A stretch of 64,000 nucleotides of DNA, taken from Thermodesulfobacteriota bacterium. GTDB lineage: Bacteria > Desulfobacterota > BSN033 > UBA1163. Made by a program: the position numbers and the translations under genes. The notes beneath the pieces were generated by a model. That model was not told the DNA's origin. It did not search any database and saw only the letters and a program-made list of their open reading frames with translations. The stretch's first letter is position 1, and the number at the start of each line of letters is the position of its first letter. Shown here in pieces: positions 4,655 through 50,645 of the stretch. The DNA lies in NCBI GenBank assembly GCA_049514515.1, contig JBEKUZ010000004.1, forward strand, positions 15,321 through 79,320, read 5' to 3'.

Positions 4655-4712
4655 CCTCCCCCTCACCGCCTCCCTCTCCCCAGCGGGGCGAGGGGAAGGG
4701 TGAGGGCTTCAT
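4655..4712. repeat. GC-rich palindromic mini-element (CCCTCACC-GCC-TCCCTCTCCCC / GGGGCGAGGGGAAGGGTGAGGG)
   Basis: Near-perfect palindrome filling the 43-bp gap between the ABC ATPase stop and the TPP-enzyme start. Same family as the copy at 16483-16552. Confidence 0.7.
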
Positions 4713-13159: not shown

Positions 13160-13228
13160 CCTACAAAATATTTAATGCGTTTGTATTAGTTTGAAGAAAT
13201 GGTGGACTTATGTATTATAATTAATTCG

Positions 13229-16042
13229 ATGGAAAAGTTTATAGAGATTATCGGGGCCAAGTCCCACAACCTCAAGAATATCAACTGCAAAATTCCCAGG
13301 GGAAAGATTACCGTCATCACAGGCGTCTCGGGGTCGGGCAAATCAACCCTCGCTTTCGACACACTCTTCGCAGAAGGCCAGAGACGTTACATTGAATCCC
13401 TCTCCACTTATGCCCGGCAATTCTTAGAGAAGATGGACCGGCCTGATGTCGAAGCCATCCATGGAATCCCTCCTGCCATCGCCATCGAACAGAAAAACAG
13501 CGTCAAGAATGCTCGCTCCACGGTTGGAACAGCCTCTGAGATATATGATTACCTCAGGCTTCTCTTTGCTAAGATCGGTGAAGTCTTCTGCCCGGACTGC
13601 CACGTCAAAGTCTCAGGCGATACCGTGGAGGGTGTCGTAGAACAGATCTTGAGTCAATTTAAAGGAGTAAAGATTTTCATCCTCAGCCCGGTCTCTCTGG
13701 ACGATAGCCAGGAAAGAGAGCTTAAGGTAAAAGATCTCATCAAAAATGGATATTACCGAATTTGCGAGAAAGGCCAAATTCTTGATCTCACCAGCCTCTC
13801 TGCTTCAGAATTTCAACAAAGGTTTTCCCCCTCTTCCTCCCCTCTCCCACAAGGGGAGAGGGTGATGGAGAAGAAAGCTCTCTCCGTCCTCATTGACAGG
13901 CTTGTCTTAGAAGAGAAGGAAAGATCAAGGCTATCTGAAGCCATTCAGAAAGGGTTTCAAGTAGGGAATGGTAAAATTGAAGTGCTCACTGAACAGGGTA
14001 AGAGAATGACCTTCAACAGGAGCTTCTCCTGTAATCGCTGCGGACGAAATTTTTCAGAGCCCGAGCCTCTTCTCTTCTCGTTTAACAGCCCTCTCGGCGC
14101 CTGCCGCGCCTGCCAGGGTTTCGGCAGGATCATTGGGATCGATTGGCAGAAGGTGATCCCGGATCCGAAAAAGACATTGAAAGAAAAACCCTTTGCTCCC
14201 TGGAACACGCCGGCTTATGAAGACCTTTATGAATATCTATGGACGGCCTGCCGGAGGCACAAGATTCCAACCCAAAAACCCTTTGAAGAACTTCTCCCTC
14301 AACAGAAAGAGATTTTAGTCAACGGAAAAGGGGAGTTCATCGGCTTAAAAGGATTCTTTGAATGGATGGAAGGAAAGCGGTACAAAGTTCACTACCGGGT
14401 TTTTCTGAGTAAATACCGGGCCTATACCCCCTGCCCCACCTGTCACAATACCCGACTAAAAGAAGAAGCACTCTATGTGTTACTGGCGGGGAAAAATATT
14501 GCCGAGCTTTGCGACATGCCTATCTCCGACCTCCAGATGTTCTTCAAGAATCTGCCGATCAAAGACTTTCAAAAGAAGGTTGGAGAGCGCCTGCTTAAAG
14601 AGATTAACGACCGAATCGGATTCATGGTGGATGTCGGATTGGGATACTTAACCCTTTCCCGTCAAACCAGAACTCTCTCCAGCGGCGAATATCAGCGCAT
14701 CACATTGGCGAGGTCGCTCGGCTCCGCTCTGACTGAAACTCTCTATGTCTTGGATGAGCCGAGCATTGGCCTGCACGCAAGGGATACCCATCGCCTCCTT
14801 CGGTCCCTCCGGAAATTACGAGAAGGAGGAAATACAGTGGTCGTAGTGGAACACGATCCGGATGTGATACGAGCAGCCGATGAGGTCATTGACCTTGGCC
14901 CCGGGGCCGGAAGATCGGGAGGCTCTATGGTTTTTCAAGGAGGGCTGGAATCCCTTCTGCAAAACCAGGATTCCATTACAGCCCGCTACTTGCGAGACGG
15001 AACGGCCTCTGATCCAATCAGGTCTCTTAGAAAACCGCAAGGGTGGATTTCCATCCACAATGCACGGGAGCACAACCTTAAAGGAATCGATGTGAGAATC
15101 CCGTTGGGCGTAATGGTTTGCATCACGGGCGTCTCCGGAGCCGGAAAGACCACCTTGGTTCACAACATTCTATACTCAGGAGCAAAGGGCAATGGGAGCT
15201 CAGGCTTTGAAAAGGGAGCCTTCGACTCCATCAAAGGTCTCGATCAGATCCATGATCTCATCCTGGTCGATCAATCGCCCATTGGGAAAAGTCTTCGCTC
15301 AAACTCAGCCACCTATATCAAGGTATTCAGCGAGATTCGGGATCTTTTCGCCCAGACCCGGGAGGCCAAGCGATATGGATTCAAACCCCGCCATTTCTCT
15401 TTCAATACAGAAGGGGGCCGATGTGAAACCTGCCAGGGCGCGGGGTTTCAAGTTCTGGACATGCAATTCTTAGAAGATGTCATCATCACCTGTGAAACGT
15501 GTGAAGGGAAGAGATTCCGGCCTGAGATTCTGAAAGTGAAGTACCGAGATAAGAATATTTCAGAAGTGCTAAATATGACCGTTGATGATGCAATCGCCTT
15601 CTTCGAAAGCCATCACCGAATTCTGCAAAAACTTCAAACCCTGAAAGACGTGGGCTTAGGCTATCTCACCCTCGGCCAATCCACCAATACGCTGAGCGGG
15701 GGAGAATCCCAGCGTCTGAAACTGGCTCAGCATATCGGCCAAAGCCATGAGGGGAAGAGTCTCTTCATCTTTGACGAACCCACCACAGGACTCCACATGG
15801 CCGATGTCGAACTCCTTCTGATGACCTTTGAGAAACTTCTTTCCCAAGGCCATTCGATCATCGTGATTGAACACAACCTCGACCTCATCCGACGTGCAGA
15901 TTATATCATTGATTTGGGCCCTGAAGGAGGGGAAGAAGGAGGAAGGATCGTGGCCGAGGGCGATCTCAAAAAGATCATGGCCTCGCCGCAATCCTACACA
16001 GGGCAGTTCCTAAAACAACGCCTGAACGAAACAAAGGTTTAG
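13229..16042 (+). CDS. uvrA: Excinuclease ABC subunit A (UvrA)
   Basis: MEKFIEIIGAKSHNLKNI...GVSGSGKSTLAFDTLFAEGQRRYIESLSTYARQF. Two ABC ATPase modules, zinc-finger cysteines. Start trimmed to 13229 by alignment to the canonical UvrA N-terminus. Confidence 0.95.
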   Translation: MEKFIEIIGAKSHNLKNINCKIPRGKITVITGVSGSGKSTLAFDTLFAEGQRRYIESLSTYARQFLEKMDRPDVEAIHGIPPAIAIEQKNSVKNARSTVGTASEIYDYLRLLFAKIGEVFCPDCHVKVSGDTVEGVVEQILSQFKGVKIFILSPVSLDDSQERELKVKDLIKNGYYRICEKGQILDLTSLSASEFQQRFSPSSSPLPQGERVMEKKALSVLIDRLVLEEKERSRLSEAIQKGFQVGNGKIEVLTEQGKRMTFNRSFSCNRCGRNFSEPEPLLFSFNSPLGACRACQGFGRIIGIDWQKVIPDPKKTLKEKPFAPWNTPAYEDLYEYLWTACRRHKIPTQKPFEELLPQQKEILVNGKGEFIGLKGFFEWMEGKRYKVHYRVFLSKYRAYTPCPTCHNTRLKEEALYVLLAGKNIAELCDMPISDLQMFFKNLPIKDFQKKVGERLLKEINDRIGFMVDVGLGYLTLSRQTRTLSSGEYQRITLARSLGSALTETLYVLDEPSIGLHARDTHRLLRSLRKLREGGNTVVVVEHDPDVIRAADEVIDLGPGAGRSGGSMVFQGGLESLLQNQDSITARYLRDGTASDPIRSLRKPQGWISIHNAREHNLKGIDVRIPLGVMVCITGVSGAGKTTLVHNILYSGAKGNGSSGFEKGAFDSIKGLDQIHDLILVDQSPIGKSLRSNSATYIKVFSEIRDLFAQTREAKRYGFKPRHFSFNTEGGRCETCQGAGFQVLDMQFLEDVIITCETCEGKRFRPEILKVKYRDKNISEVLNMTVDDAIAFFESHHRILQKLQTLKDVGLGYLTLGQSTNTLSGGESQRLKLAQHIGQSHEGKSLFIFDEPTTGLHMADVELLLMTFEKLLSQGHSIIVIEHNLDLIRRADYIIDLGPEGGEEGGRIVAEGDLKKIMASPQSYTGQFLKQRLNETKV
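13826..13865. repeat. Palindromic mini-element inserted in-frame in uvrA (TCCCCTCTCCC-ACAA-GGGGAGAGGG)
   Basis: Encodes SPSSSPLPQGERV inside the UvrA variable region. Same core as the intergenic copies at 4655 and 16483. Confidence 0.7.
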
Positions 16043-16107
16043 GTTTAGGTTTAGGCTAAGATTAAGATTAAAACCTGAGATCCCTCAATCTTAACCTCAG
16101 CCTCAAC

Positions 16108-16368
16108 CTAAATCTCTGTTCTCTGTTTGATGCAGCTGAGCATCTGTTCGAGGCGATTCCGCTCAAATCCGACCATCACCTCGTTGCATGCAGTAATCAC
16201 CGGTACGCTTCGCGCACCAGAAATCTTCACCATCTCGTCCAATGCTGCCCGGTCTTTGGTCACATCGTACTCTGTAAATTTGTAGCCCTTTTGCGAAAGA
16301 AACTCTTTCGCCATCTTGCAATAGGGTCACGTCGGTGTCGAATAAACTTTGATTTCGTCTTCTGCCAT
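16108..16368 (-). CDS. Glutaredoxin-like selenoprotein (UGA-encoded Sec in a U-P-Y-C active site)
   Basis: The track ORF 16108-16314 starts at MAKEF. Extending upstream in frame gives MAEDEIKVYSTPT-TGA-PYCKMAKEFL..., i.e. a Grx/NrdH CPYC motif with the first Cys replaced by an in-frame TGA (16327-16329). GGAGG RBS 8 nt before the ATG at 16368. SECIS-like hairpin follows the UGA. Confidence 0.75.
16285..16326 (-). promoter_or_regulatory. SECIS-like stem-loop immediately 3' of the in-frame UGA
   Basis: mRNA UGA-CCCUAUUGC-AAGAUG-GCGAAAG-AGUUU-CUUUCGC-AAAAGGG. 7-bp upper stem with a 5-nt G/U-containing loop, plus a lower stem CCCUAUUGC/GCAAAAGGG, at the spacing of bacterial SECIS elements. Confidence 0.5.
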
Positions 16369-16482
16369 AGGGATTCCTCCTCGTTCATATATTATTCACC
16401 GCTTCTTCTTTATTTTTACACATATCCCCTTTGAATTGTCAACGAATGTTTTTTCCCGAGCTTTTCCTTTTATCGGGTTCAC

Positions 16483-16552
16483 CCTCACCCCGCCCTCTCC
16501 CCTCAAGGGAGAGGGAAGTGGAAGGTGGTTCCACCCTCACCCCGCCCGCTGC
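16483..16552. repeat. GC-rich palindromic mini-element (CACCCTCACCCCGCC-CTCTCCCCTCAAGGGAGAGGG...CACCCTCACCCCGCC)
   Basis: Palindrome CCCTCTCCCCTCAAGGGAGAGGG flanked by 15-bp direct repeats. Homologous to 4655-4712. It generates the spurious N-terminal extension of ORF 16431. Confidence 0.7.
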
Positions 16553-25865: not shown

Positions 25866-26320
25866 GGTCCGAGGAAAGATGTTTAAGAAGATGCAAATTA
25901 ATCCTGCAACAGTAACCACAGCGAAGATCGTCATTCCCGCCCCGATTTTCACCGGGATAAACTCCAACGGGAATCCAGACGTCGTCCCTGCGAAAGCAGG
26001 GAACCAGTTTTCAAATACTGGATTCCCCCGTGTCAAACACGGGGCAGGCTTAATCAAACCGGGAATAACAGAACGGCTAGGTCTTATATTGCCGTACATA
26101 AAAAATGATTTGGCAGCAGTGGCCTTCGATTTGCGCCGGATTTTATTGCCTCTGACCATTTGGTCATGCCATGCGTGGGTGGCCCCTACGTTCAGGTTGT
26201 ACCATGGTTTGGCAGCCGCACTTCACCCACAGGATGAGGCGCTAAAACCAAAATTCTTGAACGCAAATCCGAGATCCCAACCCAAGTTCGGGATGACAAA
26301 AAGAGAAGAAACGGACAGTC

Positions 26321-26425
26321 ATGTCATGCTGAACCCTGAAGGTGTCATGCCGAACTCTGAATGTGTTATGCCGAACGCCCAAAGTGTCATGCCGAACGCC
26401 CAAAGTGTCATGCCGAACTTGTTTC
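26321..26425 (+). repeat. Tandem 21-bp repeat array (GTGTCATGCCGAACGCCCAAA x about 5)
   Basis: Units at 26342, 26363, 26384 and 26405, with a degenerate copy at about 26321. Ends in the palindrome ATGCCGAA-cttg-TTCGGCAT. Lies about 100 bp upstream of the first pseudopilin gene. Confidence 0.8.
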
Positions 26426-26529
26426 GGCATCTCTCCAGGGCAGGCTTGTTTCAGCATTTGGTTCATTCTTTTCCCGCTGTCAGCAGACGCAGTATTAATA
26501 AACCTTCGGACCCTCGACCCCTTGAACCC

Positions 26530-26967
26530 GTGAACTCTTCGGGGTTCACCGTAATCGAACTCATCGTGGTCATAGTCATCATCGGAATTTTGGCTGCTAC
26601 TGTGCTGCCCAGGATCAATTTTGGCTCCGTCTCCTCTCAAACCTCCGTGGCCGGAGCAGCGAATATGGTCCGCTCCGACATCCGATATACCCAAGAATGC
26701 GCGATGGCCAGTCGGGTTTCTAAAGCTATCAGCTTCACGTCGGGCCAATCTTCATATACCTTCCCGGCGACCAACCCTTCTACCAGCAGTCTTGATCCTA
26801 CGGGACGACTTCAAGGAGCAGCGATTGGCACTACAGTCCAATTTACTTTTAATTCTCTTGGGGAACCAAGTACATCCTCCGTAGGGGTTTGGACAGTGAG
26901 TGTCTCTGACGGGGTAACGACAATACCAATTACTATAACCCAATATACAGGAGAGGTGGCTTATTGA
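26530..26967 (+). CDS. Prepilin-type N-terminal cleavage/methylation-domain protein (minor pilin/pseudopilin)
   Basis: GTG start giving (M)NSSG|FTVIELIVVIVIIGILAA. The track ORF from 25795 is rejected as a single protein. No clear RBS, so the start is uncertain. Confidence 0.55.
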   Translation: MNSSGFTVIELIVVIVIIGILAATVLPRINFGSVSSQTSVAGAANMVRSDIRYTQECAMASRVSKAISFTSGQSSYTFPATNPSTSSLDPTGRLQGAAIGTTVQFTFNSLGEPSTSSVGVWTVSVSDGVTTIPITITQYTGEVAY

Positions 26968-27540: not shown

Positions 27541-28128
27541 ATGACTAATTATCCCGAAATCCAAAATCCAAAATCCCCCTCACCCTCTCCCTCCCCCTCC
27601 AGGGGGGAGGGTTGGGGAGGCGATAGGGGTTTCACCCTAATAGAAATCATCGTTGTGATTGTCATTTTGTCTATTGTCTCGGTCATCACTATTAAGTTCT
27701 TGGTTGATAGTTTGAGAGTCTATACGATGACAGTCAATCAAAAGAGTCTTTTCGACGAAGGGAAATTAGCATTGGAACAGATGTGCAGAGGTATCCGGGA
27801 TGCAAATAGCATTACAGGAGTTACTGCCACTTCGATAACTTTTGTGAGAGACAATGCAACAGCTAACGATGCTGTAGGAGAAACAATTAGTTATCAACTC
27901 AACGCAGGTGTAGTCCAAAAAGTGAAAGCCGGCAACGGCTACGCAATGGCCAGAAACGCTACTACATTTGCCGTGACGAATGCTACAAATGAGATCCTTC
28001 TACAATTAACACTTCAATTGGCAAGCGGAGAGAATGTAACCCTGCAGACAAAGATTTATCCCAAAAACCTTGCAAAAAGTCTAACTTATAAGAGCTTCTA
28101 CTCAAACTGGATGGAGGCATACCAGTAG
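27541..28128 (+). CDS. Prepilin-type minor pilin/pseudopilin with extended leader
   Basis: ...RG|FTLIEIIVVIVILSIV. The 29-aa leader contains SPSPSPSPSRGEGWGG encoded by a palindromic mini-element (27574-27625). Confidence 0.7.
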   Translation: MTNYPEIQNPKSPSPSPSPSRGEGWGGDRGFTLIEIIVVIVILSIVSVITIKFLVDSLRVYTMTVNQKSLFDEGKLALEQMCRGIRDANSITGVTATSITFVRDNATANDAVGETISYQLNAGVVQKVKAGNGYAMARNATTFAVTNATNEILLQLTLQLASGENVTLQTKIYPKNLAKSLTYKSFYSNWMEAYQ

Positions 28129-29835
28129 GTGAAAAAGCTAAATTTAACCAACTTTCTATTTGGGGGCTACCATCCAAAATCGATGAAAATTGAAAATCCC
28201 CCTTCATCCCCCTTTGTTAAAGGGGGAATAACTACCCCTCCCTTTAGCAAAGGGAGGTTGGGAGGGATTTTCTTTCTAACAAATATCAAAGGAATCTCGG
28301 TGATCTTTCTGGTGATTGCCATGCTGCTGATGGTGACGATCGGATACGTTTTCTCTTATTTGATCCCCACAAAACAGAAATCCGTGGTCTTCCCTATCCA
28401 GTCCACCCAGGCTTTCTTCATCGCTCAATCCGGAGTCGAATTCGCTGTTCGCTATGCCAAGGATCAAAGTTGGACAACAAAGGCACAACTCGCCGGATTG
28501 ACCGGTATGACAAGGACTTTTGGAGCAGGAAGCTTTACTTTGACTTATACTAACACCGCTCCCAATCTTGATACCCTGACTTCTGTTGGATATGTCCCCG
28601 CCGGCACTGAAAGAAGGAGGATTGTTGTCTCCAATTTAACCAGTTTCTTGAACTACTTCGCCTACCATAAGACAATTACGGTACAGGCGGGGCAGGTAAG
28701 TGCTGGCCCCCTTACTAATTTTCCCATGCTTGTAAGTGTCACAGACCCTAATCTCGCAACCGTCGCAAGCGGCGGACATGTCGCGAGCTATAATGCCGGT
28801 ACCAACGATCCTTGGGACATTATCTTCGAAGGTCTGGACGACACCACTTGTGGGGGGGCCGGGACCTCACCCTGTAAGTTAAACCACGAAATTGAAGCCT
28901 ATGCTCCAGCGACGGGGACACTTGTTGCATGGGTCAGGGTTCCTTCTATTAATAACGGCACAGTCATTTACATGTATTATGGAAATGGCTGTATGACAGC
29001 TTCCACGCAGAGTGCGACAGGGGTCTGGGATGCTACCTACAAGGGGGTTTGGCATCTCAGTCAGAGTCCTACTGGCACAGCTCCCCAGATGAAAGATTCC
29101 ACGTCGAACGGATACAATGGGACGGCGAATGGAGGGTTTGTCGCCGGCGACCAACAAACAGCCAAGATCGATGGAGGTCTTGACTTCGAAAGCGCACATA
29201 ACGACTATGTACAGATAGCAGCGGCGGCCCTCGGCACCACTTCTGTAACTGTTTCTGCCTGGATTAAAGTCACGAGCTTCACCGAATATACATTCGGCGG
29301 TACCACTAACCCAAGCTTAGGTGCGGTTGTTTTCAGCACAAGGGACCTGGACGCGAACGTTTCCCCGACGCTTCTGGTATCAGCGGCAAGTAATGGTGGT
29401 GGATTTGGGGGCCCAACCTCCCTTGTGTTCTGTGACGACACTGCCAACGTTGCAGTAGGAGCAAAGGGCGCCACGACAATCGCAACTGGTACGTGGTACT
29501 ACGCTGTCGGTACGTTCAGCTATAACGCCGGCACTGCGACATATTTAGGCAACTGGAATGTGTACCGGAACGGCGTGCAGGACAACGCCGCGGCAAATAA
29601 CTTCGATTACGCGGGCACGGCCACCGTCCCCTTCAGTGGCGCATCGTGGATACTCGGAAATGACCCTCAGTGGACGACGGCGAACACAGATAGTAACGTC
29701 ATTCTCGACGAAGTTCGTGTATCAAACATCGCGCGTTCCGCCGGCTGGATCTTGACCGAATACAACAACCAGAGCACCCCCGGTAACCTGGGCGCCCCCG
29801 GTTTTTATGGCGTAGGGGCCGAGCAAAATAATTGA
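28129..29835 (+). CDS. Large pilus-associated protein: PilX-like N-terminal TM region + LamG/DUF2341-like jelly-roll C-terminal domain (MshQ-like)
   Basis: TM helix followed by AFFIAQSGVEFAVRYA (PilX_N-like). C-terminal lectin/LamG-like Gly/Thr/Asn-rich beta region. N-terminal 45 aa carry two copies of the CCCCCTTT..AAAGGGGG mini-hairpin. Confidence 0.55.
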   Translation: MKKLNLTNFLFGGYHPKSMKIENPPSSPFVKGGITTPPFSKGRLGGIFFLTNIKGISVIFLVIAMLLMVTIGYVFSYLIPTKQKSVVFPIQSTQAFFIAQSGVEFAVRYAKDQSWTTKAQLAGLTGMTRTFGAGSFTLTYTNTAPNLDTLTSVGYVPAGTERRRIVVSNLTSFLNYFAYHKTITVQAGQVSAGPLTNFPMLVSVTDPNLATVASGGHVASYNAGTNDPWDIIFEGLDDTTCGGAGTSPCKLNHEIEAYAPATGTLVAWVRVPSINNGTVIYMYYGNGCMTASTQSATGVWDATYKGVWHLSQSPTGTAPQMKDSTSNGYNGTANGGFVAGDQQTAKIDGGLDFESAHNDYVQIAAAALGTTSVTVSAWIKVTSFTEYTFGGTTNPSLGAVVFSTRDLDANVSPTLLVSAASNGGGFGGPTSLVFCDDTANVAVGAKGATTIATGTWYYAVGTFSYNAGTATYLGNWNVYRNGVQDNAAANNFDYAGTATVPFSGASWILGNDPQWTTANTDSNVILDEVRVSNIARSAGWILTEYNNQSTPGNLGAPGFYGVGAEQNN

Positions 29836-29861
29836 GGAGGAGGCTCCTTAAGGAGTTATAT

Positions 29862-31700
29862 ATGCCAGAAACAATCGGTTTGGATATTGGTTCTCATTCG
29901 ATTAAGTTAATTGGTCTCAAGACGACTTCCAAGGGACCTTTCTTGACATGTTTAGGGATGAAAGAAATTCCCCCTAACACTGACAAAGAGGATGTGAACG
30001 CTCTTTCCGGGATCCTCAGGGCCCTTATTACGGAAGTTGGTCTTAAAACGAAAAAGGTGAATTTAACTGTTTCAGGTTCAGGAGTTCAGGTCAAGCGAAT
30101 CTCCGTTCCTTCTCTCCCCAAAGCCGAATTAAAAGAGGCTGTTCGTTGGGAGATGAAGAATTACATCCCCTTCCCTGTTGAAACAGCGGAAATTGATTTC
30201 CACACCTTAAATGAATATGTTGAAGATAACGTTAAGAGATTAAATCTGATCGTTGTGGCTTGCCCGAAACAACTCATTGACCGCACTCTCTCCATCGCCG
30301 AGAATGCTGGGCTTCAACCGAATCATCTCGATGTAGCCCCCTTTTCCCTTTGGAATACTCTTTTGGTTTGGGATCAACTTAGGAAAGAAGAAACCATTGC
30401 TTTGATTGACCTTGGAGCTGAAAAAACCGGCATTTATCTTTTCAAGGATGGAATTTTGCAGTTCGCTCGAGAAGTCACTCCTGCCGGGACAGACATTACC
30501 AAAGCCGTTATGGAGGGAATCGGTTCTGAAGGAAAAACCAATGTCGTTTTTGAGCGAGCGGAAGAGATAAAGCAAGAAATGGGAATCCCTTCGGAGGCTT
30601 ACCAGGAGAAAGGTGGCGATAAATCCTTATCGAAAATGTCTTTTCTCGTCAGACCTGTGTTTGAGAGACTATCAGCAGAGATAGGACGATCTCTTGACTA
30701 TTACAGGAGCCAATTTAATGAAGAACGGATTGATAAGCTGCTCCTGACCGGCGGAGGCGCCAACCTGAAGAATTTGGTTTCCTATCTCGCAAGCGAGGTT
30801 CGATTGCCCGTGGAGCATTTTAATCCGCTTAGCGATATCCTTTTCGATCCAAGAAGGATCGGCACTCAATTTCTTAACCAGATGGGTTCGCTTTTCGCCG
30901 TCGCGATAGGCGTAGCCCTCCCTGAACCCAAACGAATCGAGTTGCTCCCGGTTGTAGAACCATTTTTATCGAAGGCTCAATTAGTGAAGTCCTTTCCTGT
31001 CCTGGCCCCTGGAATCGCATTGCTTGTCTTTTTAGGAGTCGCCTTATATATGAACGCACAGGTGAACGCAATAAGAAGAGAAATAGATATGAAGAAGGCG
31101 AAGCTGGCGGTTCTGGATGCCCGTCAGGAAAAACTAAAAATGTTAAAAGAGAAAGATATCCAGCTCAAGGAAAAGCTTTCTCAATTCCCATCTTCAATGA
31201 TCGTTCCCGTTCCCTATCGAGACATCTTGAGAGAGGTGAGTCAAATTATCCCGGACAACGTCACCTTGACTCTTCTTGCAGTTCAAAATAAGGGGAAACC
31301 TCTGACGAAAGGAACTCCGCCCCCAAAGCCACAGGAAGGAGAATCCCCCAAAGGCGTGGGGAGAGAACTTCATATAACAGGTGTCGTTTTCGGAAGCGAT
31401 CTTCGCTGCCTCACAGCCTTAGCCCAGATCATCGAGCGGCTCGAGAAAACACCCTTGTTTAATAATACAAGACTGGTTTCAGCCGATGAGAACAAACTCT
31501 ATACTCAATCAGGAGCAGAATTTGGCATCGTCTGCGACATCAATCCTAATAATCCCCCCTCTCTCCCCGACACCTCCTTCTCCCCCCTTTACAAAAGGGG
31601 GGGAGGGGGGATTACTGACACCTCTTCCTCCCTTTACAAAGGCGGGGAAGGGGGAATTACTAAAAGGGAGATAACAGAATTAAGAAAGGAAAAACAATAG
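29862..31700 (+). CDS. PilM-PilN fusion protein (MshI-like)
   Basis: N-terminal actin-like PilM ATPase fold (IGLDIGSHSIKLIGL...). After about residue 350 there is a TM helix plus a PilN-like coiled-coil periplasmic domain. C-terminal tail encoded by a duplicated ~48-bp palindromic unit. Confidence 0.85.
   Translation: MPETIGLDIGSHSIKLIGLKTTSKGPFLTCLGMKEIPPNTDKEDVNALSGILRALITEVGLKTKKVNLTVSGSGVQVKRISVPSLPKAELKEAVRWEMKNYIPFPVETAEIDFHTLNEYVEDNVKRLNLIVVACPKQLIDRTLSIAENAGLQPNHLDVAPFSLWNTLLVWDQLRKEETIALIDLGAEKTGIYLFKDGILQFAREVTPAGTDITKAVMEGIGSEGKTNVVFERAEEIKQEMGIPSEAYQEKGGDKSLSKMSFLVRPVFERLSAEIGRSLDYYRSQFNEERIDKLLLTGGGANLKNLVSYLASEVRLPVEHFNPLSDILFDPRRIGTQFLNQMGSLFAVAIGVALPEPKRIELLPVVEPFLSKAQLVKSFPVLAPGIALLVFLGVALYMNAQVNAIRREIDMKKAKLAVLDARQEKLKMLKEKDIQLKEKLSQFPSSMIVPVPYRDILREVSQIIPDNVTLTLLAVQNKGKPLTKGTPPPKPQEGESPKGVGRELHITGVVFGSDLRCLTALAQIIERLEKTPLFNNTRLVSADENKLYTQSGAEFGIVCDINPNNPPSLPDTSFSPLYKRGGGGITDTSSSLYKGGEGGITKREITELRKEKQ
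31553..31672. repeat. Tandem pair of ~48-bp GC-rich hairpin units (…CCCCCCCTTTACAAAAGGGGGGG…)
   Basis: GACACCTCCTTCTCCCCCCCTTTACAAAAGGGGGGGAGGGGGGATTACT followed by GACACCTCTTCCTCCCTTTACAAAGGCGGGGAAGGGGGAATTACT. In-frame at the C-terminus of the PilM-N fusion gene. Confidence 0.75.
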
Positions 31701-31703
31701 ACC

Positions 31704-32270
31704 ATGGTACTGAAAAGCAGAGAAAAAATATTGATCATCTTGGCCGTCATTGCTATTGCCTTTTGGGCCTTCGTCACCTTTTACTACGCGCCGCAGAGTC
31801 GCAAAATGAAGGCGTTGGAGGCAGACCTCAAAGCGGCTGATCTCAGATCTGAAGAATCCCAGCTGGTGACGAAAGGGGTAGAAACGTTAGAGGCCGAAAT
31901 CCTTCGTCAGGAGGATGCGCTAAAAAGACTAAGCGAACGAACCCTGAGAGGCGAAGAATTCAGAACCTTCCTAAGACACTTAGCCAGGGAAAGCGACTCC
32001 CCTGAGATGAAGGTGATCTCTCTGATCCCTCAAGAAGAAAATCTTCCGCCTCCCGAGGGGCAGAAGGAACGTCCTGCTCCTCAATACAGGAGGGTAACTG
32101 TTCAGATGGTTCTTCACTCAACCTTTGGGAAGCTGGAGACCTATTTAAAAGGGATTGAACAACTTCCTTTTCTCATCAATGTGGACAATATCCAGATGGA
32201 AAGGATCGAAGAGGTTCAGCCCTTTTCAAAGGTCACCATAGGGTTAAGTATGTATGTTACTTCACAATAG
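31704..32270 (+). CDS. pilO: Type IV pilus assembly protein PilO (MshJ-like)
   Basis: N-terminal TM helix, coiled coil, ~190 aa, directly downstream of the pilM-N fusion. Confidence 0.7.
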   Translation: MVLKSREKILIILAVIAIAFWAFVTFYYAPQSRKMKALEADLKAADLRSEESQLVTKGVETLEAEILRQEDALKRLSERTLRGEEFRTFLRHLARESDSPEMKVISLIPQEENLPPPEGQKERPAPQYRRVTVQMVLHSTFGKLETYLKGIEQLPFLINVDNIQMERIEEVQPFSKVTIGLSMYVTSQ

Positions 32271-32365
32271 AAGATCGGGCGGCCTCGGAGGGCCGCCCCT
32301 ACAGACGTTAGAACCAAGTAGGGGAGTCCCTCTGCGGGCTCCCAACCCTTGAAGGAGAAAATTCC

Positions 32366-32971
32366 GTGAGACAACATCGAAAAATAATTATGGCTACGGT
32401 CTTCATCACCTTTTTCATTTTTGCCGGAATCGACCTGCTGCACCCGATCCGGGCAAACGGACAGGCCAAAGAGAGGACAATTTCCCCTCAAGAAAGTAGG
32501 AGGGATCCATTCCTCCTCCCTTCGGACGTCCATCTCCTTTCGAAGATCGGATTGTCTCCAGGAATGAAGGGAGTTTTCCCAAAAACGGAAACGGATGCGC
32601 CGGTCAAGGCCATTTTAATCGGCGACCGCATTCGATTGGCATTGATCGATCATCATATTGTTACCGTAGGAGATTCGATCCATGGCGAAAAGGTTTTAGA
32701 GATTAAAACAGACCGAGTCATTTTAGGAAAAGGAGAGCAAAAGAAAACCCTTCTTTTGCCTCAAAGCCCCGTTCCATTAACCGTTGAAGAGAAACCCCAC
32801 CTTTCTCCTCCCCCGCAAAAGGGGGAGCGAACCCCGTTAGAAATTCCAGTCGGTGCGACTCGAAACCGAGCGGTGAGCCAAACCCCGCCGGAGGGACCTC
32901 ATCCCGCAGCAGAGCAGGGGGCTATCCTTTCTAACGAGGTGAAGGAGGGAGTTAAAGGAGATGAACGATGA
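32366..32971 (+). CDS. PilP-like pilus assembly protein (MshK-like)
   Basis: N-terminal TM/signal anchor, RDPF motif, beta-rich C-terminal region. GTG start with AAGGAGA RBS. In-frame mini-hairpin at 32798-32832. Confidence 0.55.
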   Translation: MRQHRKIIMATVFITFFIFAGIDLLHPIRANGQAKERTISPQESRRDPFLLPSDVHLLSKIGLSPGMKGVFPKTETDAPVKAILIGDRIRLALIDHHIVTVGDSIHGEKVLEIKTDRVILGKGEQKKTLLLPQSPVPLTVEEKPHLSPPPQKGERTPLEIPVGATRNRAVSQTPPEGPHPAAEQGAILSNEVKEGVKGDER

Positions 32972-37127: not shown

Positions 37128-37210
37128 CGCATGAAAATCAGAAATCCCCCGGTAGGCAGGGGAGGATTGGGAAGTAGATTTTCTGGGTAATTGATCTTTG
37201 GAGGTATTCT

Positions 37211-38938
37211 ATGGCCGAGGAGAAAAAAAGTTTTGGAGATTTTCTGGTGAGATTGGGGGTCCTCAGCGCTGATCAGTTGAGAACAGCCTCCCAGGAACAG
37301 AAACAGAGAGGCGAACGCCTGGAACAGACCATCGTCCGGCTGGGTTATGCTAAAGAAGAGGTGATCCTGCAGGGCTTGGCCGATTATTTTAATCTCCCCT
37401 ATGTCGATCTCGACACCTATCTAATTGATGAGAATATCGTAAAAACCATCCCCGAAGACCTGGCGCGGCGCCATACATTAATCCCTCTCTTTAAGATCGG
37501 AAACACGTTGACGGTCGCCATGCCCGATCCCCTTAATCTCCTTGCATTGGATGAGGTGAGGAACAAGGTGAAGAACGACGTGGAGATAGCCATCGGCACC
37601 GAAAAAAAGATTAAAAAAGCGATTGAACAACACTACGGAGCCGCAGCCACGGTCTTTGAAAGTACCCTCCAGCAAATGGCACAGGGCAGCGTAGGCGGGC
37701 TGCCCCAGGAATCTACAGACTACAGAAAAACGCATGACCTCATTGCCAAAGACGTTCGGCCAGGAGCGATGGAAGATGCTTCTGCTGCCCGGGTGCTCGA
37801 TTTGGTCATGATTCAAGCCATTCGAGATCGGGCCAGCGATATTCATTTCGAACCCGACGAAAAGAACCTACGGGTCCGGTTACGAATTGACGGCTTTTTA
37901 TATGAATCTCTAACCCTCCCTAAGCCAATCCAGCCGGCCATCACTTCGAGGATTAAAATCCTGGCTGAGATGGATATTGCGGAGACGAGGCTTCCCCAGG
38001 ACGGAAATTTCAATGTCAAAATGGAGAAACGGGGTTTTGAAATCCGGGTCTCAACGTTTCCTACGATCTACGGTGAAAACGTGGTGCTTCGAATTCTTGA
38101 CCAGACCAGCCCCCTTTTCAAGCTGGATGATTTGGGGTTTTCCGGAGAGATGCTAAAACAATTCAAGCAACTGGTTCGAAAAACGAACGGGATCATCCTG
38201 GTCACCGGACCGACAGGCAGTGGGAAAACAACCACCCTCTACGGCCTCTTAAACATGATCAATTCGAAGGATAAAAACATTATCACCATAGAGGACCCTG
38301 TGGAGTACCGGTTGGCTCTGATCAGACAGACACAGATCAATCCCAAAGCAGGAATTAGCTTTGCCACGGGATTGAGGTCTATTCTCAGGCAGGACCCTGA
38401 TATCATCATGATCGGAGAGATCAGGGACCTGGAGACCTCAGAGATTGCGATGCAGGCAGCCCTGACAGGCCATCTGGTATTGAGCACGCTACATACGAAT
38501 GACGCGCCAGAGGCGATCTCCCGACTGATGGATATCGGCGTGGAGCCCTACCTCATCTCATCCTGTGTCATCGGGGTTTTAGCACAACGTCTGGTCCGGA
38601 CCATCTGTCCGGATTGCAAGGCGTCTTATCAGATTGACACGAAGGGCACGAGTGATCTTGGCGCTGACGTCTCGAAATCAAAAGGACCGTTAACCCTCTA
38701 TCGGGGGAAGGGCTGCAAAAATTGCAAACAGTCCGGATTCCGGGGAAGAACCGGGATCTTCGAGCTTCTCTTGGTCAATGACGAGATTAAGAAGCTTATT
38801 TCCGAAAGAGCTTCGGTCCAGGTGATTCGAGAGGTAGCGAAGAAGACGGCAGGAATGGTTCCCTTGAGAGAGGACGGCCTGGAAAAGGTTCTAAAAGGAA
38901 TTACCACCCTTAAAGAAGTGGATCGGGTGGCTTACTAA
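37211..38938 (+). CDS. pilB: Type IV pilus assembly ATPase PilB/GspE family (MshE-like)
   Basis: N-terminal T2SSE_N domain, Walker A GPTGSGKTTT, Asp/His boxes, C-terminal tetracysteine motif (CPDC...CKNC). Confidence 0.95.
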   Translation: MAEEKKSFGDFLVRLGVLSADQLRTASQEQKQRGERLEQTIVRLGYAKEEVILQGLADYFNLPYVDLDTYLIDENIVKTIPEDLARRHTLIPLFKIGNTLTVAMPDPLNLLALDEVRNKVKNDVEIAIGTEKKIKKAIEQHYGAAATVFESTLQQMAQGSVGGLPQESTDYRKTHDLIAKDVRPGAMEDASAARVLDLVMIQAIRDRASDIHFEPDEKNLRVRLRIDGFLYESLTLPKPIQPAITSRIKILAEMDIAETRLPQDGNFNVKMEKRGFEIRVSTFPTIYGENVVLRILDQTSPLFKLDDLGFSGEMLKQFKQLVRKTNGIILVTGPTGSGKTTTLYGLLNMINSKDKNIITIEDPVEYRLALIRQTQINPKAGISFATGLRSILRQDPDIIMIGEIRDLETSEIAMQAALTGHLVLSTLHTNDAPEAISRLMDIGVEPYLISSCVIGVLAQRLVRTICPDCKASYQIDTKGTSDLGADVSKSKGPLTLYRGKGCKNCKQSGFRGRTGIFELLLVNDEIKKLISERASVQVIREVAKKTAGMVPLREDGLEKVLKGITTLKEVDRVAY

Positions 38939-41570
38939 CGACGGCCCTTTTGCGTCGCCCGACCCATCCCAGACCAACACAACCTAAAATTCCCAGGATG
39001 GTTGCTCCAATACCCAACTTAAAACTCAAGGGATCATAAACAAATTCTACCTGATGTGTCCCGACACTCAGAGGAATTGCTCTGAATGTATAATCGGCCC
39101 TATATATTTTGGTTTCTTTCCCATCCACGAAAGCCTTCCACCCCGGATAGTAAGTATCGCTCAATACCAGCAGGCAATCTTTGGGAGCCTTCACCTGAAG
39201 GTCTAACCGGTTATTGCTCTCCGTCAAGATTTGGGCCTTCTGAGGGAGCCCACTGAGCGGCTCCCCTACATCATTCGTTCTTCGTAGGGGCGGCCCTCTG
39301 CGGCCGCTCTGGCTTGGGGTGGCTTCTTCCCCCTTTGCAAAAGGAACGGCGTGGGAACTTATCCATTTGGGTTCTTCTTCAAGAAAAACCTCCTGACCCG
39401 GACGAAATTCATTCTGGAGCATCATCAAAAGCATTTTTTGTAAGTCCATCACTTTGAAGTCTTTTACAAGCCATGCTCTCGGAAGAGGGCTGCGATTTTT
39501 ATATAGCTTTATGGTATTCTCTTTAAGGAGATCTTCCCTCTTTCCCTGAAGCCCTTCAAGGTTTGCATAAATCAACTCAAATTTATGGTTTTTCTCAAGA
39601 AGAGTAACAGAGGTAATATATTTCACACCGTAAAGATCTATGAGTTGCGTTGCTGAAATAGAAGGAGTACTGACAAAAATTCTATAAAGATCATCCGTTC
39701 GTTTTACTCGAATGACGTCAGCTCCCCAAAGGTCATGTAACTGATACAGGAGATTCATAGAAGGATAATGTTTTTCCTTCAATGTATTAAGAAATGAAGG
39801 GTCTCCAACCAAAATTGTAGCGTCTTGCGAAATAGTTTTGGCAGTTGAAAATACTCTAAAAAAGCCTTTGTCCGAAGAAATTGTTTTCAATATTTCAGTC
39901 TTTTGAAAATAGTCCGACGCTTTTTCTTTCCAGTAGTAGCCCATATTACCAAACAGGTCTGTTATCAGGAAAAGGATCAATAGAAGTTTTGTCCAACCCT
40001 TCCATTTCTTCTCGTAGCCGGTCCTTAGCAAGAGAAAGAAAAGAGCCAAGTAGAAGAAAAATCTTTTCGTATGGAAAAGGTTTGCAGAGAGATAATTGAA
40101 TTGCGGAAAATCAATCTCTCTTAGTTTCAAATATTGTTCAATACTTCTATGGCCTAAAGCCAGAAATAAAAGGAGTAGACCACTGATGAGAGAAAGCGTT
40201 GTGAGAAGGTTTTTAATTCTCTTCCCTCCACCCTCTTTTGAGAGATCGAACAACCGCTGAAACCCCATGCCTGCTGTAACAGAGAGGAGGAGAATAAAAA
40301 TATAGAGAAATTTTGCAGGATACCGGATTCCATTGAAAAATGGAATGTACTTAAAAACAAAAGGGTAGAGAGGATTGTAAGCGCCTAACGATAGAAAGAT
40401 CGAGAAGATCATGAGAATGAGAAAGAGCATCTTGTTGTCTTGGTGCGCTTCCGTTCGATCCTTTTCTTCAGAGGATAAGGTGCGGCGATGGGGCATGAGA
40501 AAGAAGATCAAGCTCAGTATAAAGGGAAGTCCTCCCGTATAGAGCGTTTTGAACCAGCATTGAACGGTCCAATATTTTTTCATATCTAAAAAATATCCAT
40601 AGGCATCGGGAAGAAAGAATAGAAGAATATCCTTGGGCGCAAAACTCCATGTGGTTGCTTCTTGATAGGAAATTCCATTTCCCCTGATAGAGTGATGAAA
40701 CAATTCGACAAAAGGGAATAATTGAACTGCGGAGAGAAACAAAAAGAGAATGGAAATAACCAAGAGACTTCTTATTCGTCCCCAATAAATGGGGGCGCTA
40801 CGGACGAATTTGGAAATGGAAAGGCTAAAAGGGGATTTGTGGCGTCGGGGTTTATCCCCGACAGAGTTGGCATATGGAAAGGGGGAGAAAATCACCATGA
40901 TTAAGAGAACAAAAAAATTACCATAGACAATTTCTATCCCTCCGCCCAAAAAAGAAATAGTGATCAGAATAGCCGTAAAAATCTCATTTTTTAAACCCCG
41001 TCCGTTGATCGCCCTTCTGAAAAACATCATGATCAAAGGCGTCCAGATACTCGAAAGGAGAATGGTCAGCAAACTATGGACGGAAAGGAGATACCCGCTG
41101 AGCATAAATGTCAGGCCCGAGATAAGGGAACCTGTTGCATTTATCTTAAAGTCTCTAAGGAGAAGGTAGGTGAATAATCCGCCCAAGAAGAAATGAAGAA
41201 TGATGATGGCATTAAAGGCCACATCGAAGGGGAGAAGAAAAAAAAGACCATTTAAGGGATAAAGGAGGGCATGCTGGGGGTTAGCAAAGAAGGGTTGGCC
41301 GGAGAATTGATAGGGATTCCATAAAGGGAAACTTCCATGCTTGATGCTTTCGACCCAGAAGAATCGCGGTGGAATGAAATAAGGACCTAAATCCCTTTCT
41401 ATGAGCAGAAACCTTTTCTCAAGGAGGTCATAAAAAAAGAACAGGGATAAAAAGAAAAGGGCCAGAACAGCCAAGAAATCCGGTGATCTGACCCATCCTA
41501 TTTTTTCTCTAATCTTTTCAATCACAAGGAGGCTGGTTTTACTGTATTCCTTCCTTATAAATCTCAACAA
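38910..41570 (-). CDS. YfhO-family polytopic membrane protein (GT-C-like putative glycosyltransferase)
   Basis: N-terminal region with GPYF...LWNPYQFSGQPFFANPQ..LYP, typical of YfhO. More than 12 TM helices plus a C-terminal periplasmic domain. The track start at 41570 is TTG without an SD, so the exact start is uncertain. Confidence 0.65.
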   Translation of the reverse strand: MLRFIRKEYSKTSLLVIEKIREKIGWVRSPDFLAVLALFFLSLFFFYDLLEKRFLLIERDLGPYFIPPRFFWVESIKHGSFPLWNPYQFSGQPFFANPQHALLYPLNGLFFLLPFDVAFNAIIILHFFLGGLFTYLLLRDFKINATGSLISGLTFMLSGYLLSVHSLLTILLSSIWTPLIMMFFRRAINGRGLKNEIFTAILITISFLGGGIEIVYGNFFVLLIMVIFSPFPYANSVGDKPRRHKSPFSLSISKFVRSAPIYWGRIRSLLVISILFLFLSAVQLFPFVELFHHSIRGNGISYQEATTWSFAPKDILLFFLPDAYGYFLDMKKYWTVQCWFKTLYTGGLPFILSLIFFLMPHRRTLSSEEKDRTEAHQDNKMLFLILMIFSIFLSLGAYNPLYPFVFKYIPFFNGIRYPAKFLYIFILLLSVTAGMGFQRLFDLSKEGGGKRIKNLLTTLSLISGLLLLFLALGHRSIEQYLKLREIDFPQFNYLSANLFHTKRFFFYLALFFLLLRTGYEKKWKGWTKLLLILFLITDLFGNMGYYWKEKASDYFQKTEILKTISSDKGFFRVFSTAKTISQDATILVGDPSFLNTLKEKHYPSMNLLYQLHDLWGADVIRVKRTDDLYRIFVSTPSISATQLIDLYGVKYITSVTLLEKNHKFELIYANLEGLQGKREDLLKENTIKLYKNRSPLPRAWLVKDFKVMDLQKMLLMMLQNEFRPGQEVFLEEEPKWISSHAVPFAKGEEATPSQSGRRGPPLRRTNDVGEPLSGLPQKAQILTESNNRLDLQVKAPKDCLLVLSDTYYPGWKAFVDGKETKIYRADYTFRAIPLSVGTHQVEFVYDPLSFKLGIGATILGILGCVGLGWVGRRKRAVVSKPPDPLL

Positions 41571-41618: not shown

Positions 41619-41664
41619 CCAATAAACACCCTTTCCTTCTCTCCGTTGAGAGAAAGGAAAGGGT
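41619..41664 (-). terminator. Intrinsic terminator after pilin gene 1
   Basis: Minus strand: CACCCTTTCCTTTCTCTC-aacgg-AGAGAAGGAAAGGGTG followed by TTTATT. Confidence 0.6.
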
Positions 41665-41703
41665 GAGGAGAACATTTTGGATATAAGTTTGCCTATCCCT
41701 CTA

Positions 41704-42169: not shown

Positions 42170-42216
42170 CAATAAACACACCCTTTCTTTCTCTCCGTTA
42201 AGGGAAAGGAAAGGGT
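42170..42216 (-). terminator. Intrinsic terminator after pilin gene 2 (duplicate of the 41619-41664 terminator)
   Basis: Same long GC-rich hairpin plus TGTGTTTATT on the minus strand. Confidence 0.6.
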
Positions 42217-42255
42217 GAGGAGAACATTTTGGATATAAGTTTGCCTATCCCTCTA

Positions 42256-50281: not shown

Positions 50282-50645
50282 CTTCTTCTATTTGTTAACT
50301 CTTACAAATTTAATCCGTATCCTCAATTTCTGTCAAGGTTTTGAGGCAGAATATCGGCTCTTAACTCTATCGGACGCTTGCAAAAAAAACGGACAAGCTT
50401 TCCGCTGAATCCTTTGAGAAGGAGGAATCTGAGGGCCGATTCCAATATTGCCTTCGCTGTTGTGGATTCAAGAGTTTTAAGGGGATACCCGATTGGTAGG
50501 GAAAGCAGAATTCTCGAAAAGTGTGATATCTACGATGGTGTCGTCTGTTATCTTCAGACCCTGCCAATGAAAATGCCTGGTCCTCGGCGTGTCGAAATAA
50601 CCGAGTGGAGAAAATCTTCAATCCCGGTACGTGAAAAAAGAAATC

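Follow-up and report, generated by a model that had tools for sequence, protein, structure and literature searches.

A 64,000-nt stretch of DNA from an uncultured Thermodesulfobacteriota bacterium (hereafter the window) carries a dispersed family of GC-rich palindromic mini-elements, at least six of which lie in frame within open reading frames (ORFs), in at least six genes that include uvrA and several pilus genes. We consider it probable that these elements are copies of the BoxC/PIT/TM (triplex-motif) class, that they are gained, lost, and nested as discrete units, that their spread depends on the fold they adopt, and that they are tolerated within genes. Their identity and their insertion/deletion dynamics are well supported. 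New here are the in-frame coding copies, the symmetric four-block form, and stepwise nesting at hotspots.

BoxC/PIT repeats, reportedly described by Bachellier in the 1990s and by Hoyne & Maher in 2000, belong with TM repeats to a poorly understood class known for about 30 years. The lineage studied here supplies an allele series (empty, one unit, nested) together with clean filled/empty pairs at ~99% protein identity. It shows the motif in frame within repair, pilus, and membrane-protein genes; elsewhere we find it in LigA, IleRS, VgrG, and phage genes. The mode of spread of small structure-forming repeats thereby becomes testable, as does the remodeling of proteins by them, which has been documented mainly for Rickettsia palindromic elements (RPEs). 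The same insertions pose an annotation risk in metagenome-assembled genomes (MAGs): spurious-looking low-complexity segments, shifted starts and stops, and confused orthology calls.

A Clean Insertion in uvrA

The element in uvrA consists of block 0 (CCCTCTTCC), block 1 (CCCTCTCCC), an ACAA loop, and block 2 (GGGGAGAGGG), and encodes SPSSSPLPQGERVM. Translation across the insert gives QQRFSPSSSPLPQGER and reproduces the peptide FSPSSSPLPQGERV named in the original prediction, an earlier reading of the same DNA that had described the family as inserted palindromes. Orthologue alignment shows the segment to be an insertion: SPSPSPLPPGERVxEK is present in ~50 of 120 orthologues (82–100% identity) and cleanly missing from the remaining ~70, and solved UvrA proteins have a gap at the site, between two conserved strands of the UvrB-binding domain.

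Comparison of related metagenomic loci (L numbers) resolves the event at the nucleotide level. The empty allele reads CAAAGATT followed directly by GGAAAAG; the filled allele reads CAAAGGTT, then TTCCCCCTCACCCTCCCCTCTCCCACCAGGGGAGAGGGTAAT, then GGAAAAG. Filled (L202, L442) and empty (L206, L207) alleles differ by 42 nt exactly, and the insert is not accompanied by a target-site duplication. An equally clean difference is seen between two contigs whose UvrA proteins, P0008 (filled) and P0038 (empty), share 98.9% identity. In a neighbor-joining (NJ) tree the filled and empty alleles interleave, a pattern that implies repeated gain or loss, or recombination. A low-quality AlphaFold model of UvrA (26 close homologues; mean predicted local distance difference test [pLDDT] 55) renders the insert as coil at pLDDT <50, between a helix and a strand, a weak indication that it may lie in coil.

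Other variation in and around uvrA was also observed. The uvrA of L206 carries a ~120-bp miniature inverted-repeat transposable element (MITE) with AACCCCGTTAGAAAT termini (L206:3500-3620), in frame and flanked by duplicated TA; at that site the window is empty and reads AAGG-TA-AAAGA. Directly after the uvrA stop, a 29-nt imperfect inverted repeat of hexamer-like units (AGGTTTAGGTTTAGGCTAAGATTAAGATT / AATCTTAACCTCAGCCTCAACCTAAATCT) occupies 16041-16115. UvrA orthologues also differ widely in their C-terminal tails (NAKFQSSNVK and similar), and a short insertion, DPARRTSSLTGGGMSS, is found near query residue ~600 in orthologues P0098, P0103, P0113, and P0120 only.

One Architecture, Two Subfamilies

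The unit plan comprises a 9–10-nt pyrimidine block, a 3–5-nt loop, the purine complement, and a further block that mirrors the stem. The mirror follows G.G-C, A.A-T, and T.A-T triads and would allow one strand to form a hairpin or an intrastrand purine-motif triplex. Subfamily A has the core CCCTCTCCCC/GGGGAGAGGG and the mirror block GGGTGAGGGG; subfamily B has the core CCCCCCTTT/AAAGGGGGG and the mirror block GGGGGGATT, which is AAAGGGGGG mirrored under purine-motif rules, and its canonical unit measures 44–45 nt. The usual form in this lineage has a mirror block on both sides, giving a four-block hairpin of 42–49 nt with an internal loop and termini AATCCCC...GGGGATT. A mirror block lies within 1–5 nt of 113 of the 148 C-rich hairpins in the lineage DNA, compared with 10–14 of 148 at control offsets; 39 of the 148 have one on both sides, and all eight C-rich hairpins of the window have at least one.

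This plan corresponds to a published motif. In Escherichia coli, BoxC, PIT element, and TMECO are names for CCCTC(T/G)CCCC-loop-GGGGAGAGGG-TTA-GGGTGAGGGG (Holder et al. 2015, PMC4666352), and the TMECO search pattern was given as CCCTCNCCC N3-6 GGGNGAGGG N3 GGGNGAGGG, with 3610 occurrences in 262 proteobacterial genomes (PMC4666352). That pattern has two exact matches in the window (Table 1), against 0.00 expected, and is also matched in lineage loci L005, L020, L030, L032, and L036; the window copies in uvrA and at 16493 match only with 2–3 mismatches or a shorter second loop. A and B are thus two subfamilies of one architectural class, with core A being the BoxC/PIT/TMECO intrastrand-triplex motif and B a sister three-block motif. 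Membership in the RPE or repetitive extragenic palindromic (REP) families, which the original prediction had favored, gives way to this assignment; the GTAG tag is also absent.

The motif extends well beyond the lineage. In a scan for the core A hairpin over one genome per species, the matches listed nearly all carry a one-sided yyrGGGTGAGGGG block, and among these listed matches are Alpha-, Beta-, and Gammaproteobacteria, Acidobacteriota, Planctomycetota, Myxococcota, and Rokubacteria, as well as Atribacterota, Akkermansia, Bifidobacterium, a candidate phyla radiation (CPR) genome, and Thermodesulfobacteriota. Viral contigs of IMG/VR contain both A and B; core B occurs in 108 viral-contig stretches, mostly in three-block form. 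Both cores recur across phyla and in viral contigs, which clearly dismisses the no-further-copies outcome that would have spoken against the original prediction.

Within the window the cores are enriched over dinucleotide shuffles: CCCTCTCCCC (≤1 mismatch) has 26 matches (7.5±2.8 expected; shuffle maximum 16) and CCCCCTTT has 14 (5.4±2.4 expected). Hairpins were scanned with a 5′ arm of ≥90% pyrimidine, a purine 3′ arm, a stem of ≥8, ≤1 mismatch, and a loop of 1–8. Pyrimidine-arm-first hairpins number nine in the window, compared with 1.2±1.2 in shuffles (shuffle maximum 5), and those of opposite polarity are at chance level (1 versus 0.7); extended to related metagenomic loci, 519 kb in all with the window, the scan returns 109 versus 25. 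Every unit folds into a hairpin under DNA parameters (−7 to −28 kcal/mol), with modest z-scores because C-run/G-run sequences also fold well when shuffled. The picture drawn in the original prediction, of a dispersed family with copies in both coding and intergenic DNA, is borne out; its sequences were found in place with an offset of only 1–3 nt, and its clustering in the pilus locus amounts to five of ~11 copies within 5.4 kb (27.5–32.9 kb).

Stepwise Nesting in Pilus Genes

Orthologue comparison shows the coding copies to be lineage-specific in-frame indels, as had been proposed, in the prepilin-leader, PilX-like, PilM-N, and PilP-like genes as well as in uvrA. The prepilin-leader element encodes SPSPSPSPSRGEGWGGD directly before the G/FTLIE cleavage motif, and the earlier-quoted peptide SPSPSPSPSRGEGWGG is reproduced on translation. 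Orthologues in L053, L021, L007, and L045 read MTNYPEIQNPKSAF-QRGFTLIE and are 13 residues shorter here than the window and others; at the DNA level 49 nt were gained and 10 nt lost, for a net change of +39 nt. Type IV pilin leaders are cleaved at the processing site, and the insert, lying upstream of it, would therefore be removed with the leader.

The composite at the PilX-like N-terminus has outer arms AATCCCCC...GGGAGGGATT around the hairpins TCCCCCTTT/AAAGGGGGA and CCTCCCTTT/AAAGGGAGG, folds at −20.3 kcal/mol (z = −3.4), and yields the peptide PPSSPFVKGGITTPPFSKGRLGG on translation, as quoted earlier. Because of this composite, 61 residues precede the transmembrane helix in the window, versus 17 in baseline orthologues. 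In other relatives a MITE sits within the element.

Two genes preserve graded series. The tail of the PilM-N fusion runs from CDINLDNQKREEKR-stop, through DN-PPSPPFTKGGLGGL-GEEKR-stop, to an allele in which a further unit sits within the first one's loop, and then to the window allele, where two inner units stand in tandem (31569-31616, 48 nt; 31617-31661, 45 nt); translation again gives the quoted peptide (SFSPLYKRGGGGITDTSSSLYKGGEGGIT). The second inner unit is missing from L043 and L038, and one 45-nt unit, flanked by ATTACT, is resolved cleanly at the DNA level. The PilP-like series starts from a tail ending ...EERKGEKR-stop. In stage 1 a 48-nt unit, CCCCCCACCCTTACCCTCCCCCACAAGGGGGGAGGGAAGGAGGGGGGT, enters cleanly between GAAAGA and AAAGGAG without duplicating the target site (L059 vs L016). 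Stage 2 adds a ~110-nt MITE within the right arm of the unit, and stage 3, the window allele, adds a 21-nt mini-unit within the MITE; in window coordinates the MITE spans 32828-32960 and the mini-insert 32848-32868.

These nested inserts also occur elsewhere. The MITE (~110–170 bp, termini AACCCCGTTAGAAAT...ATTTCTAACGGGGT, peptide NPVRN...ISNGV; here the NPVRN MITE) makes up most of the PilP-like C-terminal tail, lies in frame at two uvrA positions in different relatives, and occurs in spacers of L025, L059, and L076; the duplicated TA in L206 would fit an IS630/Tc1-like origin. The 21-nt hairpin unit TCGGTGCGACTCGAAACCGAG is a separate insertion at three places: inside the PilP-like MITE (missing from L001, L038, and L043), in the loop of the uvrA TM unit at L208:3622-3642 (peptide VVATRNR), and between blocks 0 and 1 of the uvrA unit in L209 (~3526, opposite strand; peptide RLRVEAT). 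Another MITE, of 207 bp (69 codons) with GTCATTCCCGC...GGGAATAAC-type ends, is in frame at 25894-26100, just after the start of a pilin-like gene (25879-26967); it is missing from L052, and other relatives have related copies at the PilX-like N-terminus and in the pilO-pilP spacer. That spacer (window 32270-32366; L001–L080) is 50 bp when empty and holds at least five unrelated small element families across relatives, which marks it as a striking insertion hotspot.

Reading Frame and Tolerated Positions

All coding copies are in frame, and every peptide quoted in the original prediction is reproduced by translation. Net lengths of the coding copies are 36, 39, 42, 45, and 48 nt, as against 44–45 nt for the canonical intergenic B unit; the added linkers comprise 13–16 Pro/Ser/Gly-rich residues, and two open frame types are in use, PLPxGER (UvrA) and PSPxRGEG (prepilin). 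The idea that the in-frame state is a property of the element itself did not hold: the consensus is open in just four of six frames, with stops in the other two because of GGGTGAGGG and A/T loops. Freedom from stops in all six frames was accordingly rejected as the cause of tolerance, with 4/6 frames open in A and B and 3/6 in TMECO versus ~3.1–3.9 in random window segments. The in-frame status is therefore what purifying selection leaves.

We propose that selection would keep only those in-gene copies that change length by a net multiple of three, are translated in one of the four frames without stops, and fall in a dispensable segment; the pyrimidine arm would then encode Pro/Ser/Leu, with Gly/Glu/Arg/Lys coming from the purine arm. 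The sites hit are a cleaved prepilin leader, an N-terminal extension, C-terminal tails, and the gap position in the UvrB-binding domain of UvrA. These are dispensable segments, including a surface loop in UvrA. Most likely the elements have no function: they are tolerated, instability-prone repeat DNA, and the lengthening of proteins is incidental.

Coding copies occur in other organisms. Selected cases, LigA, IleRS, and VgrG, were checked by Pfam and solved structures. In an NAD-dependent DNA ligase (LigA) of another bacterium, two units (~38 residues) interrupt the adenylation domain in a stretch where E. coli LigA passes from residue 159 to 162. An in-frame TM unit is present in IleRS of a Gallionellaceae MAG, and VgrG of Stutzerimonas stutzeri has one between its GPD and OB domains. 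TM units also occur in a phage portal-domain protein, in a Mu-like transposase, and, in three copies, in a large viral ORF seen only as an open frame. An open-frame test for coding versus intergenic placement in other phyla was discarded as nondiscriminating, high-GC genomes having long spurious open frames. The literature searched contained no report of in-gene copies of BoxC/PIT/TM motifs; in a 2024 review of MITEs, Rickettsia RPEs are given as the foremost example of repeats inserted in frame.

Intergenic and Additional Copies

The intergenic copies listed in the original prediction are present, with two qualifications: the copy at 37143-37175 is weak and degenerate, and that at 53661-53700 is a looser variant. 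The list was also incomplete, lacking the copy at 50642-50683, the decayed B unit at ~39330-39375, and the in-frame inserts of other families. Table 1 collects the copies in the window.

Table 1. Units of the BoxC/PIT/TM class and block-like relatives in the window
Element	Position	Strand	Description
Four-block A-type	4655-4712		CCCTCACC-gcct-CCCTCTCCCC-agc-GGGGCGAGGG-gaa-GGGTGAGGG; exact TMECO match 4672-4706(+)
A-type three-block, in uvrA	13825-13866	+	42 nt; bounds from empty alleles
A-type with repeated left half	16478-16552		CCCTCACCCC-g-CCCTCTCCCC-tcaa-GGGAGAGGG-aag-TGGAAGGTGG; upstream of DUF434 gene
Four-block A-type, in prepilin leader	27574-27622	+	49 nt; gene 27541-28128; exact TMECO match 27577-27611(-)
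Composite B-type, PilX-like N-terminus	28194-28270	+	gene 28129-29835
PilM-N fusion C-terminal tail	31551-31680	+	gene 29832-31700; outer B-type, two tandem inner units in loop
A-type-like, start of PilP-like C-terminal extension	32795-32842	+	gene 32366-32971; peptide PHLSPPPQKGER, reproduced on translation
Weak degenerate copy	37143-37175		AATCCCCC-ggtaggca-GGGGAGGATT; TPR-protein gene/pilB spacer
Decayed B-type unit	39330-39375 (approximate)	-	peptide ISSHAVPFAKGEEAT; in YfhO-like gene 38910-41570(-)
B-type termini, other interior	50642-50683		AATCCCCCC...GGGGGGATT; adjoins ferritin-like gene; −12.2 kcal/mol, z = −3.0
Looser block-like hairpin	53661-53700		GATCCCCT-CCCC-aaaga-GGGG-gta-AGGGGATC; upstream of cbiM; −15.8 kcal/mol, z = −5.7

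The copy at 4655-4712 fills the spacer between an ABC-ATPase gene (stop 4709, minus strand) and a thiamine pyrophosphate (TPP)-enzyme gene (start near 4645); its purine arm adjoins a GGAGGAG ribosome-binding site, and its hairpin folds at −16.2 kcal/mol. It is present in L201 and missing from L202, and one perfect four-block intergenic copy was found only in L201. At 16482-16552 the intergenic placement claimed earlier is upheld, gene callers starting the DUF434 gene at 16662, downstream of the copy. Here 52 nt (16484-16535), bounded by a 27-nt direct repeat, are missing in L201, which fits a slippage deletion. The spacer holding the weak copy at 37143-37175 is wholly different in L038 and L043. 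Relatives have intact units at the YfhO-like B site in L031 (NPPHPPLVKGGERG) and L058 (NPPTPPLLKGGKGGITKGGLGG) and none in L014; in the window, the decayed unit adjoins an in-frame GTAG-tagged REPIN-like doublet (39258-39295).

Other repeats lie at or near these copies. The interior of the weak copy is a fragment, CCGGTAGGCAGG (window 37150-37165), of a repeat family around CCTGCCTGCCGGTAGGCAGGCAGG that is found in L024, L050, and L066 (pilO-pilP spacer), at L025:19284 and 20358, and at L005:206. The GTAG-tagged doublets, inverted GTAGGGG(C/A)G(G/T)CC hairpins ~15 nt apart, occupy 32276-32350 (also given as 32291-32329), in the pilO-pilP spacer, and 39245-39310 (also given as 39258-39295), in frame in the YfhO-like gene (peptide SGRRGPPLRRTNDVGEPLSGLP), where the doublet is missing from several relatives. 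They suggest that a REP-associated tyrosine transposase (RAYT) may be encoded elsewhere in the genome.

Mode of Spread

Units arrive as discrete insertions of 42–49 nt, and their absence from near-identical alleles is precise. The two cleanest A-type cases (uvrA, 42 nt; PilP-like, 48 nt) have no target-site duplication, which argues against MITEs mobilized by DDE-type transposases. The NPVRN MITE, which does show TA duplication in the same genes, serves as a positive control: signatures of classical transposition are detectable in these data and are lacking in TM units. Resident units receive new ones in their loops and internal loops, and tandem duplication is also seen. At the prepilin leader, the PilM-N tail, and the pilO-pilP spacer, host AATC stands exactly at the left junction, with a similar arrangement at the PilX-like N-terminus; at two sites host nucleotides were lost at the other junction (4 and 10 nt). 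Target sites lie mostly just upstream of a purine run.

We propose that copying would depend on a single-stranded fold, either the hairpin or an intrastrand purine-motif triplex, with an HUH/Y1-type enzyme or templated insertion at structure-stalled forks as candidate routes. TMECO single-stranded DNA forms an intrastrand purine-motif triplex in vitro; formation in vivo was not shown (PMC4666352). "Selfish transposition" finds no support in the present comparisons. The IS1595-family transposase encoded in the window (42970-43926) was considered as a mobilizer and rejected, its ends bearing no likeness to the elements.

Several points weigh against the reading favored here. The direction of change between alleles is read from an NJ protein tree, and the metagenomic alleles in it may recombine; some "empty" alleles may be deletions, as in the 16484 case between 27-nt direct repeats. 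The untidy junctions, with host loss and AATC, are suggestive of microhomology-mediated copying as much as of a sequence-specific enzyme. The relevant fold could be the hairpin alone, or a G-quadruplex, instead of the triplex. By its sequence the uvrA copy of the window is only loosely TMECO-like. Finally, a search of the window and of relatives' annotated flanks identified neither an enzyme nor a transposition intermediate for unit spread.

Among the alternatives, the one that survives best, although we think it unlikely, holds that the units are REP/REPIN-like and are moved in trans by a RAYT or an IS200/IS605-type HUH (Y1) transposase that recognizes the hairpin in single-stranded DNA, inserts it 3′ of a sequence such as AATC without duplication, and can excise it precisely. 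The hairpin architecture suits such an enzyme, as do the clean 42- and 48-nt insertions without target-site duplication, their precise absence at ~99% protein identity, and host AATC immediately 5′ of the insert at three of ~6 sites; the GTAG-tagged doublets leave room for a RAYT encoded elsewhere. Yet AATC is not in the required position at the uvrA and PilP-like sites, the elements have no GTAG/CGTC tag, and no Y1 or RAYT gene was seen in the window or the annotated flanks of relatives. The motif is moreover abundant in E. coli while unlinked to mobile elements (PMC4666352), and a mirror-block design common to two unrelated sequence families is unexplained by a sequence-specific transposase.

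An origin as classical MITEs, with terminal inverted repeats ATCCCCCC, TA duplication, and a DDE (IS630/Tc1-like) transposase, is improbable. It draws on subfamily B, whose canonical copies are mostly flanked as TA-ATCCCCCC...GGGGGGAT-TA and in which removal of the nested copy plus one TA in L031 restores the canonical loop TTTACTAAA, and on the TA-duplicating MITE family active in these genes. However, neither TA nor any duplication at all accompanies the two cleanest A-type insertions, and the empty PilM-N and pilO-pilP sites are not derivable by removing the element and one TA. TAAT/ATTA may simply be part of the palindrome, and the sole transposase of the window is of the IS1595 family, with unrelated ends.

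Quite improbable, too, is that nothing moves from site to site and that units grow locally from a pyrimidine/purine tract by fold-back template switching, slippage, and duplication. Such growth would account for the tandemly duplicated inner unit of PilM-N, the 52-nt indel flanked by a 27-nt direct repeat, the hotspot behavior, and the untidy junctions, and E. coli TM sites are locally unstable (PMC4666352). It does not account for empty uvrA and PilP-like sites that have no precursor tract, yet gained canonical blocks CCCCTCACCC / CCCCTCTCCC / GGGGAGAGGG, nor for near-identical 44–45-nt B copies at many nonorthologous sites.

Ancestral or selected protein linkers, or regulatory hairpins (terminators, attenuators) with incidental palindromy, could be read into the 4655 copy beside its ribosome-binding site, the linker-like Pro/Gly-rich peptides, and the hairpins at 41627 and 42179 that do resemble pilin terminators, but this is very improbable, and the presence/absence series largely refutes it. 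One DNA unit recurs in unrelated genes, in two reading frames, and in spacers, it is missing from most orthologues and solved homologues, PIT/TMECO elements have neither promoter nor terminator activity (PMC4666352), and an Rfam gathering scan of the window returned zero matches.

Fold-dependent copying of discrete units, if it holds in this lineage, invites a tentative generalization that could well fail: three-block TM repeats (BoxC/TMECO and sisters such as C6T3/A3G6/G6ATT) might be bacteria-wide copy-and-paste mini-elements that spread through their fold, with no family-specific transposase and no target-site duplication, and might be a general, hitherto unrecognized source of in-frame Pro/Ser-Gly/Glu linkers, including those in essential enzymes (UvrA, LigA, IleRS) and in phage proteins.

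Comparison with Known Repeat Families

The closest likeness is to BoxC/PIT/TMECO, in core sequence, three-block logic, multicopy and dispersed occurrence, loops more variable than stems, occasional inverted pairs, local indels nearby, conservation across taxa, and the lack of a linked transposase. In E. coli, TMECO is described as "always intergenic," unlinked to mobile elements, and marking locally unstable spacers (PMC4666352). Many window copies, in contrast, are in genes and in frame; most copies here have four blocks, with the mirror on both sides and AAT/ATT termini; a second subfamily (C6T3/A3G6/G6ATT) coexists; copies nest; and the units come from a Thermodesulfobacteriota MAG, the catalogue of TMECO having covered Proteobacteria. 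At the E. coli tauD-hemB BoxC locus the entire spacer is swapped between strains, without a clean indel.

RPEs (Ogata et al. 2000, as summarized in PMC10969869) are ~100–150 bp, AT-richer, Rickettsia-specific, and encode a conserved peptide. The likeness to them is one of behavior only: palindromes in frame in unrelated housekeeping genes, at fold-tolerated positions, with lineage-specific presence. The RPE description sets apart the units here, which are 42–49 nt, homopurine/homopyrimidine, found in many phyla, and read in at least two frames.

REP/REPIN-RAYT systems comprise clustered 20–40-nt imperfect palindromes (Bertels & Rainey 2011, PMC3116915; Di Nocera 2013, PMC3733652). New copies go into or beside existing ones in both cases, and for REPs a single-stranded hairpin is the presumed mobile form, leaving no target-site duplication. 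The present units differ in ending AATC/GATT or TTTT, in having no GTAG/CGTC tag, in not being extragenic, and in a mirror third block that REPs lack; no RAYT was seen nearby, in the window or annotated flanks. REP/REPIN-RAYT systems were reportedly also treated by Nunvar in 2010. With respect to DDE-derived MITEs, there is no duplication at uvrA (42 nt) or PilP-like (48 nt), and the TA beside B copies can be read either way. Very small units nested in other repeats are reportedly also found in cyanobacteria, as the small dispersed repeats (SDR; Elhai et al. 2008) named in PMC3116915; the 21-nt TCGGTGCGACTCGAAACCGAG unit nests similarly, its sequence being unrelated and its host phylum different.

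Genomic Context

The UvrA of the window is 100% identical to a Thermodesulfobacteriota bacterium MAG protein, and peat metagenomes contain 108-kb contigs identical to the window; Ga0116136, Ga0439241, and Ga0436470/Ga0436476 are among the peat metagenomes with this population. Strains L203–L205 are 100% identical to the window and show no polymorphism. Pfam supports the identities of uvrA (13199-16042), the prepilin-type proteins, the PilM-PilN fusion, the secretin (PilQ), and the TPR protein; PilB/PilC-type identities come from the translated sequence and precomputed T2SSF annotations on the identical contigs. Downstream lie genes for the YfhO-like membrane protein, two pilins, and the IS1595-family transposase.

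The transposase gene (ISXO2-like; 42970-43926) adjoins a HEPN-domain gene within a low-GC stretch at 42–46 kb (37–41% GC versus ~48% in the rest of the window), which is probably a recent insertion or small island. Two near-identical pyrimidine-to-purine hairpins, CACCCTTTCCTT...AAGGAAAGGGTG, at 41627-41665 and 42179-42217, each lie ~40 nt past the end of a minus-strand pilin gene, with TTTATT following on that strand; they look like intrinsic terminators of the duplicated pilin genes, not TM units.

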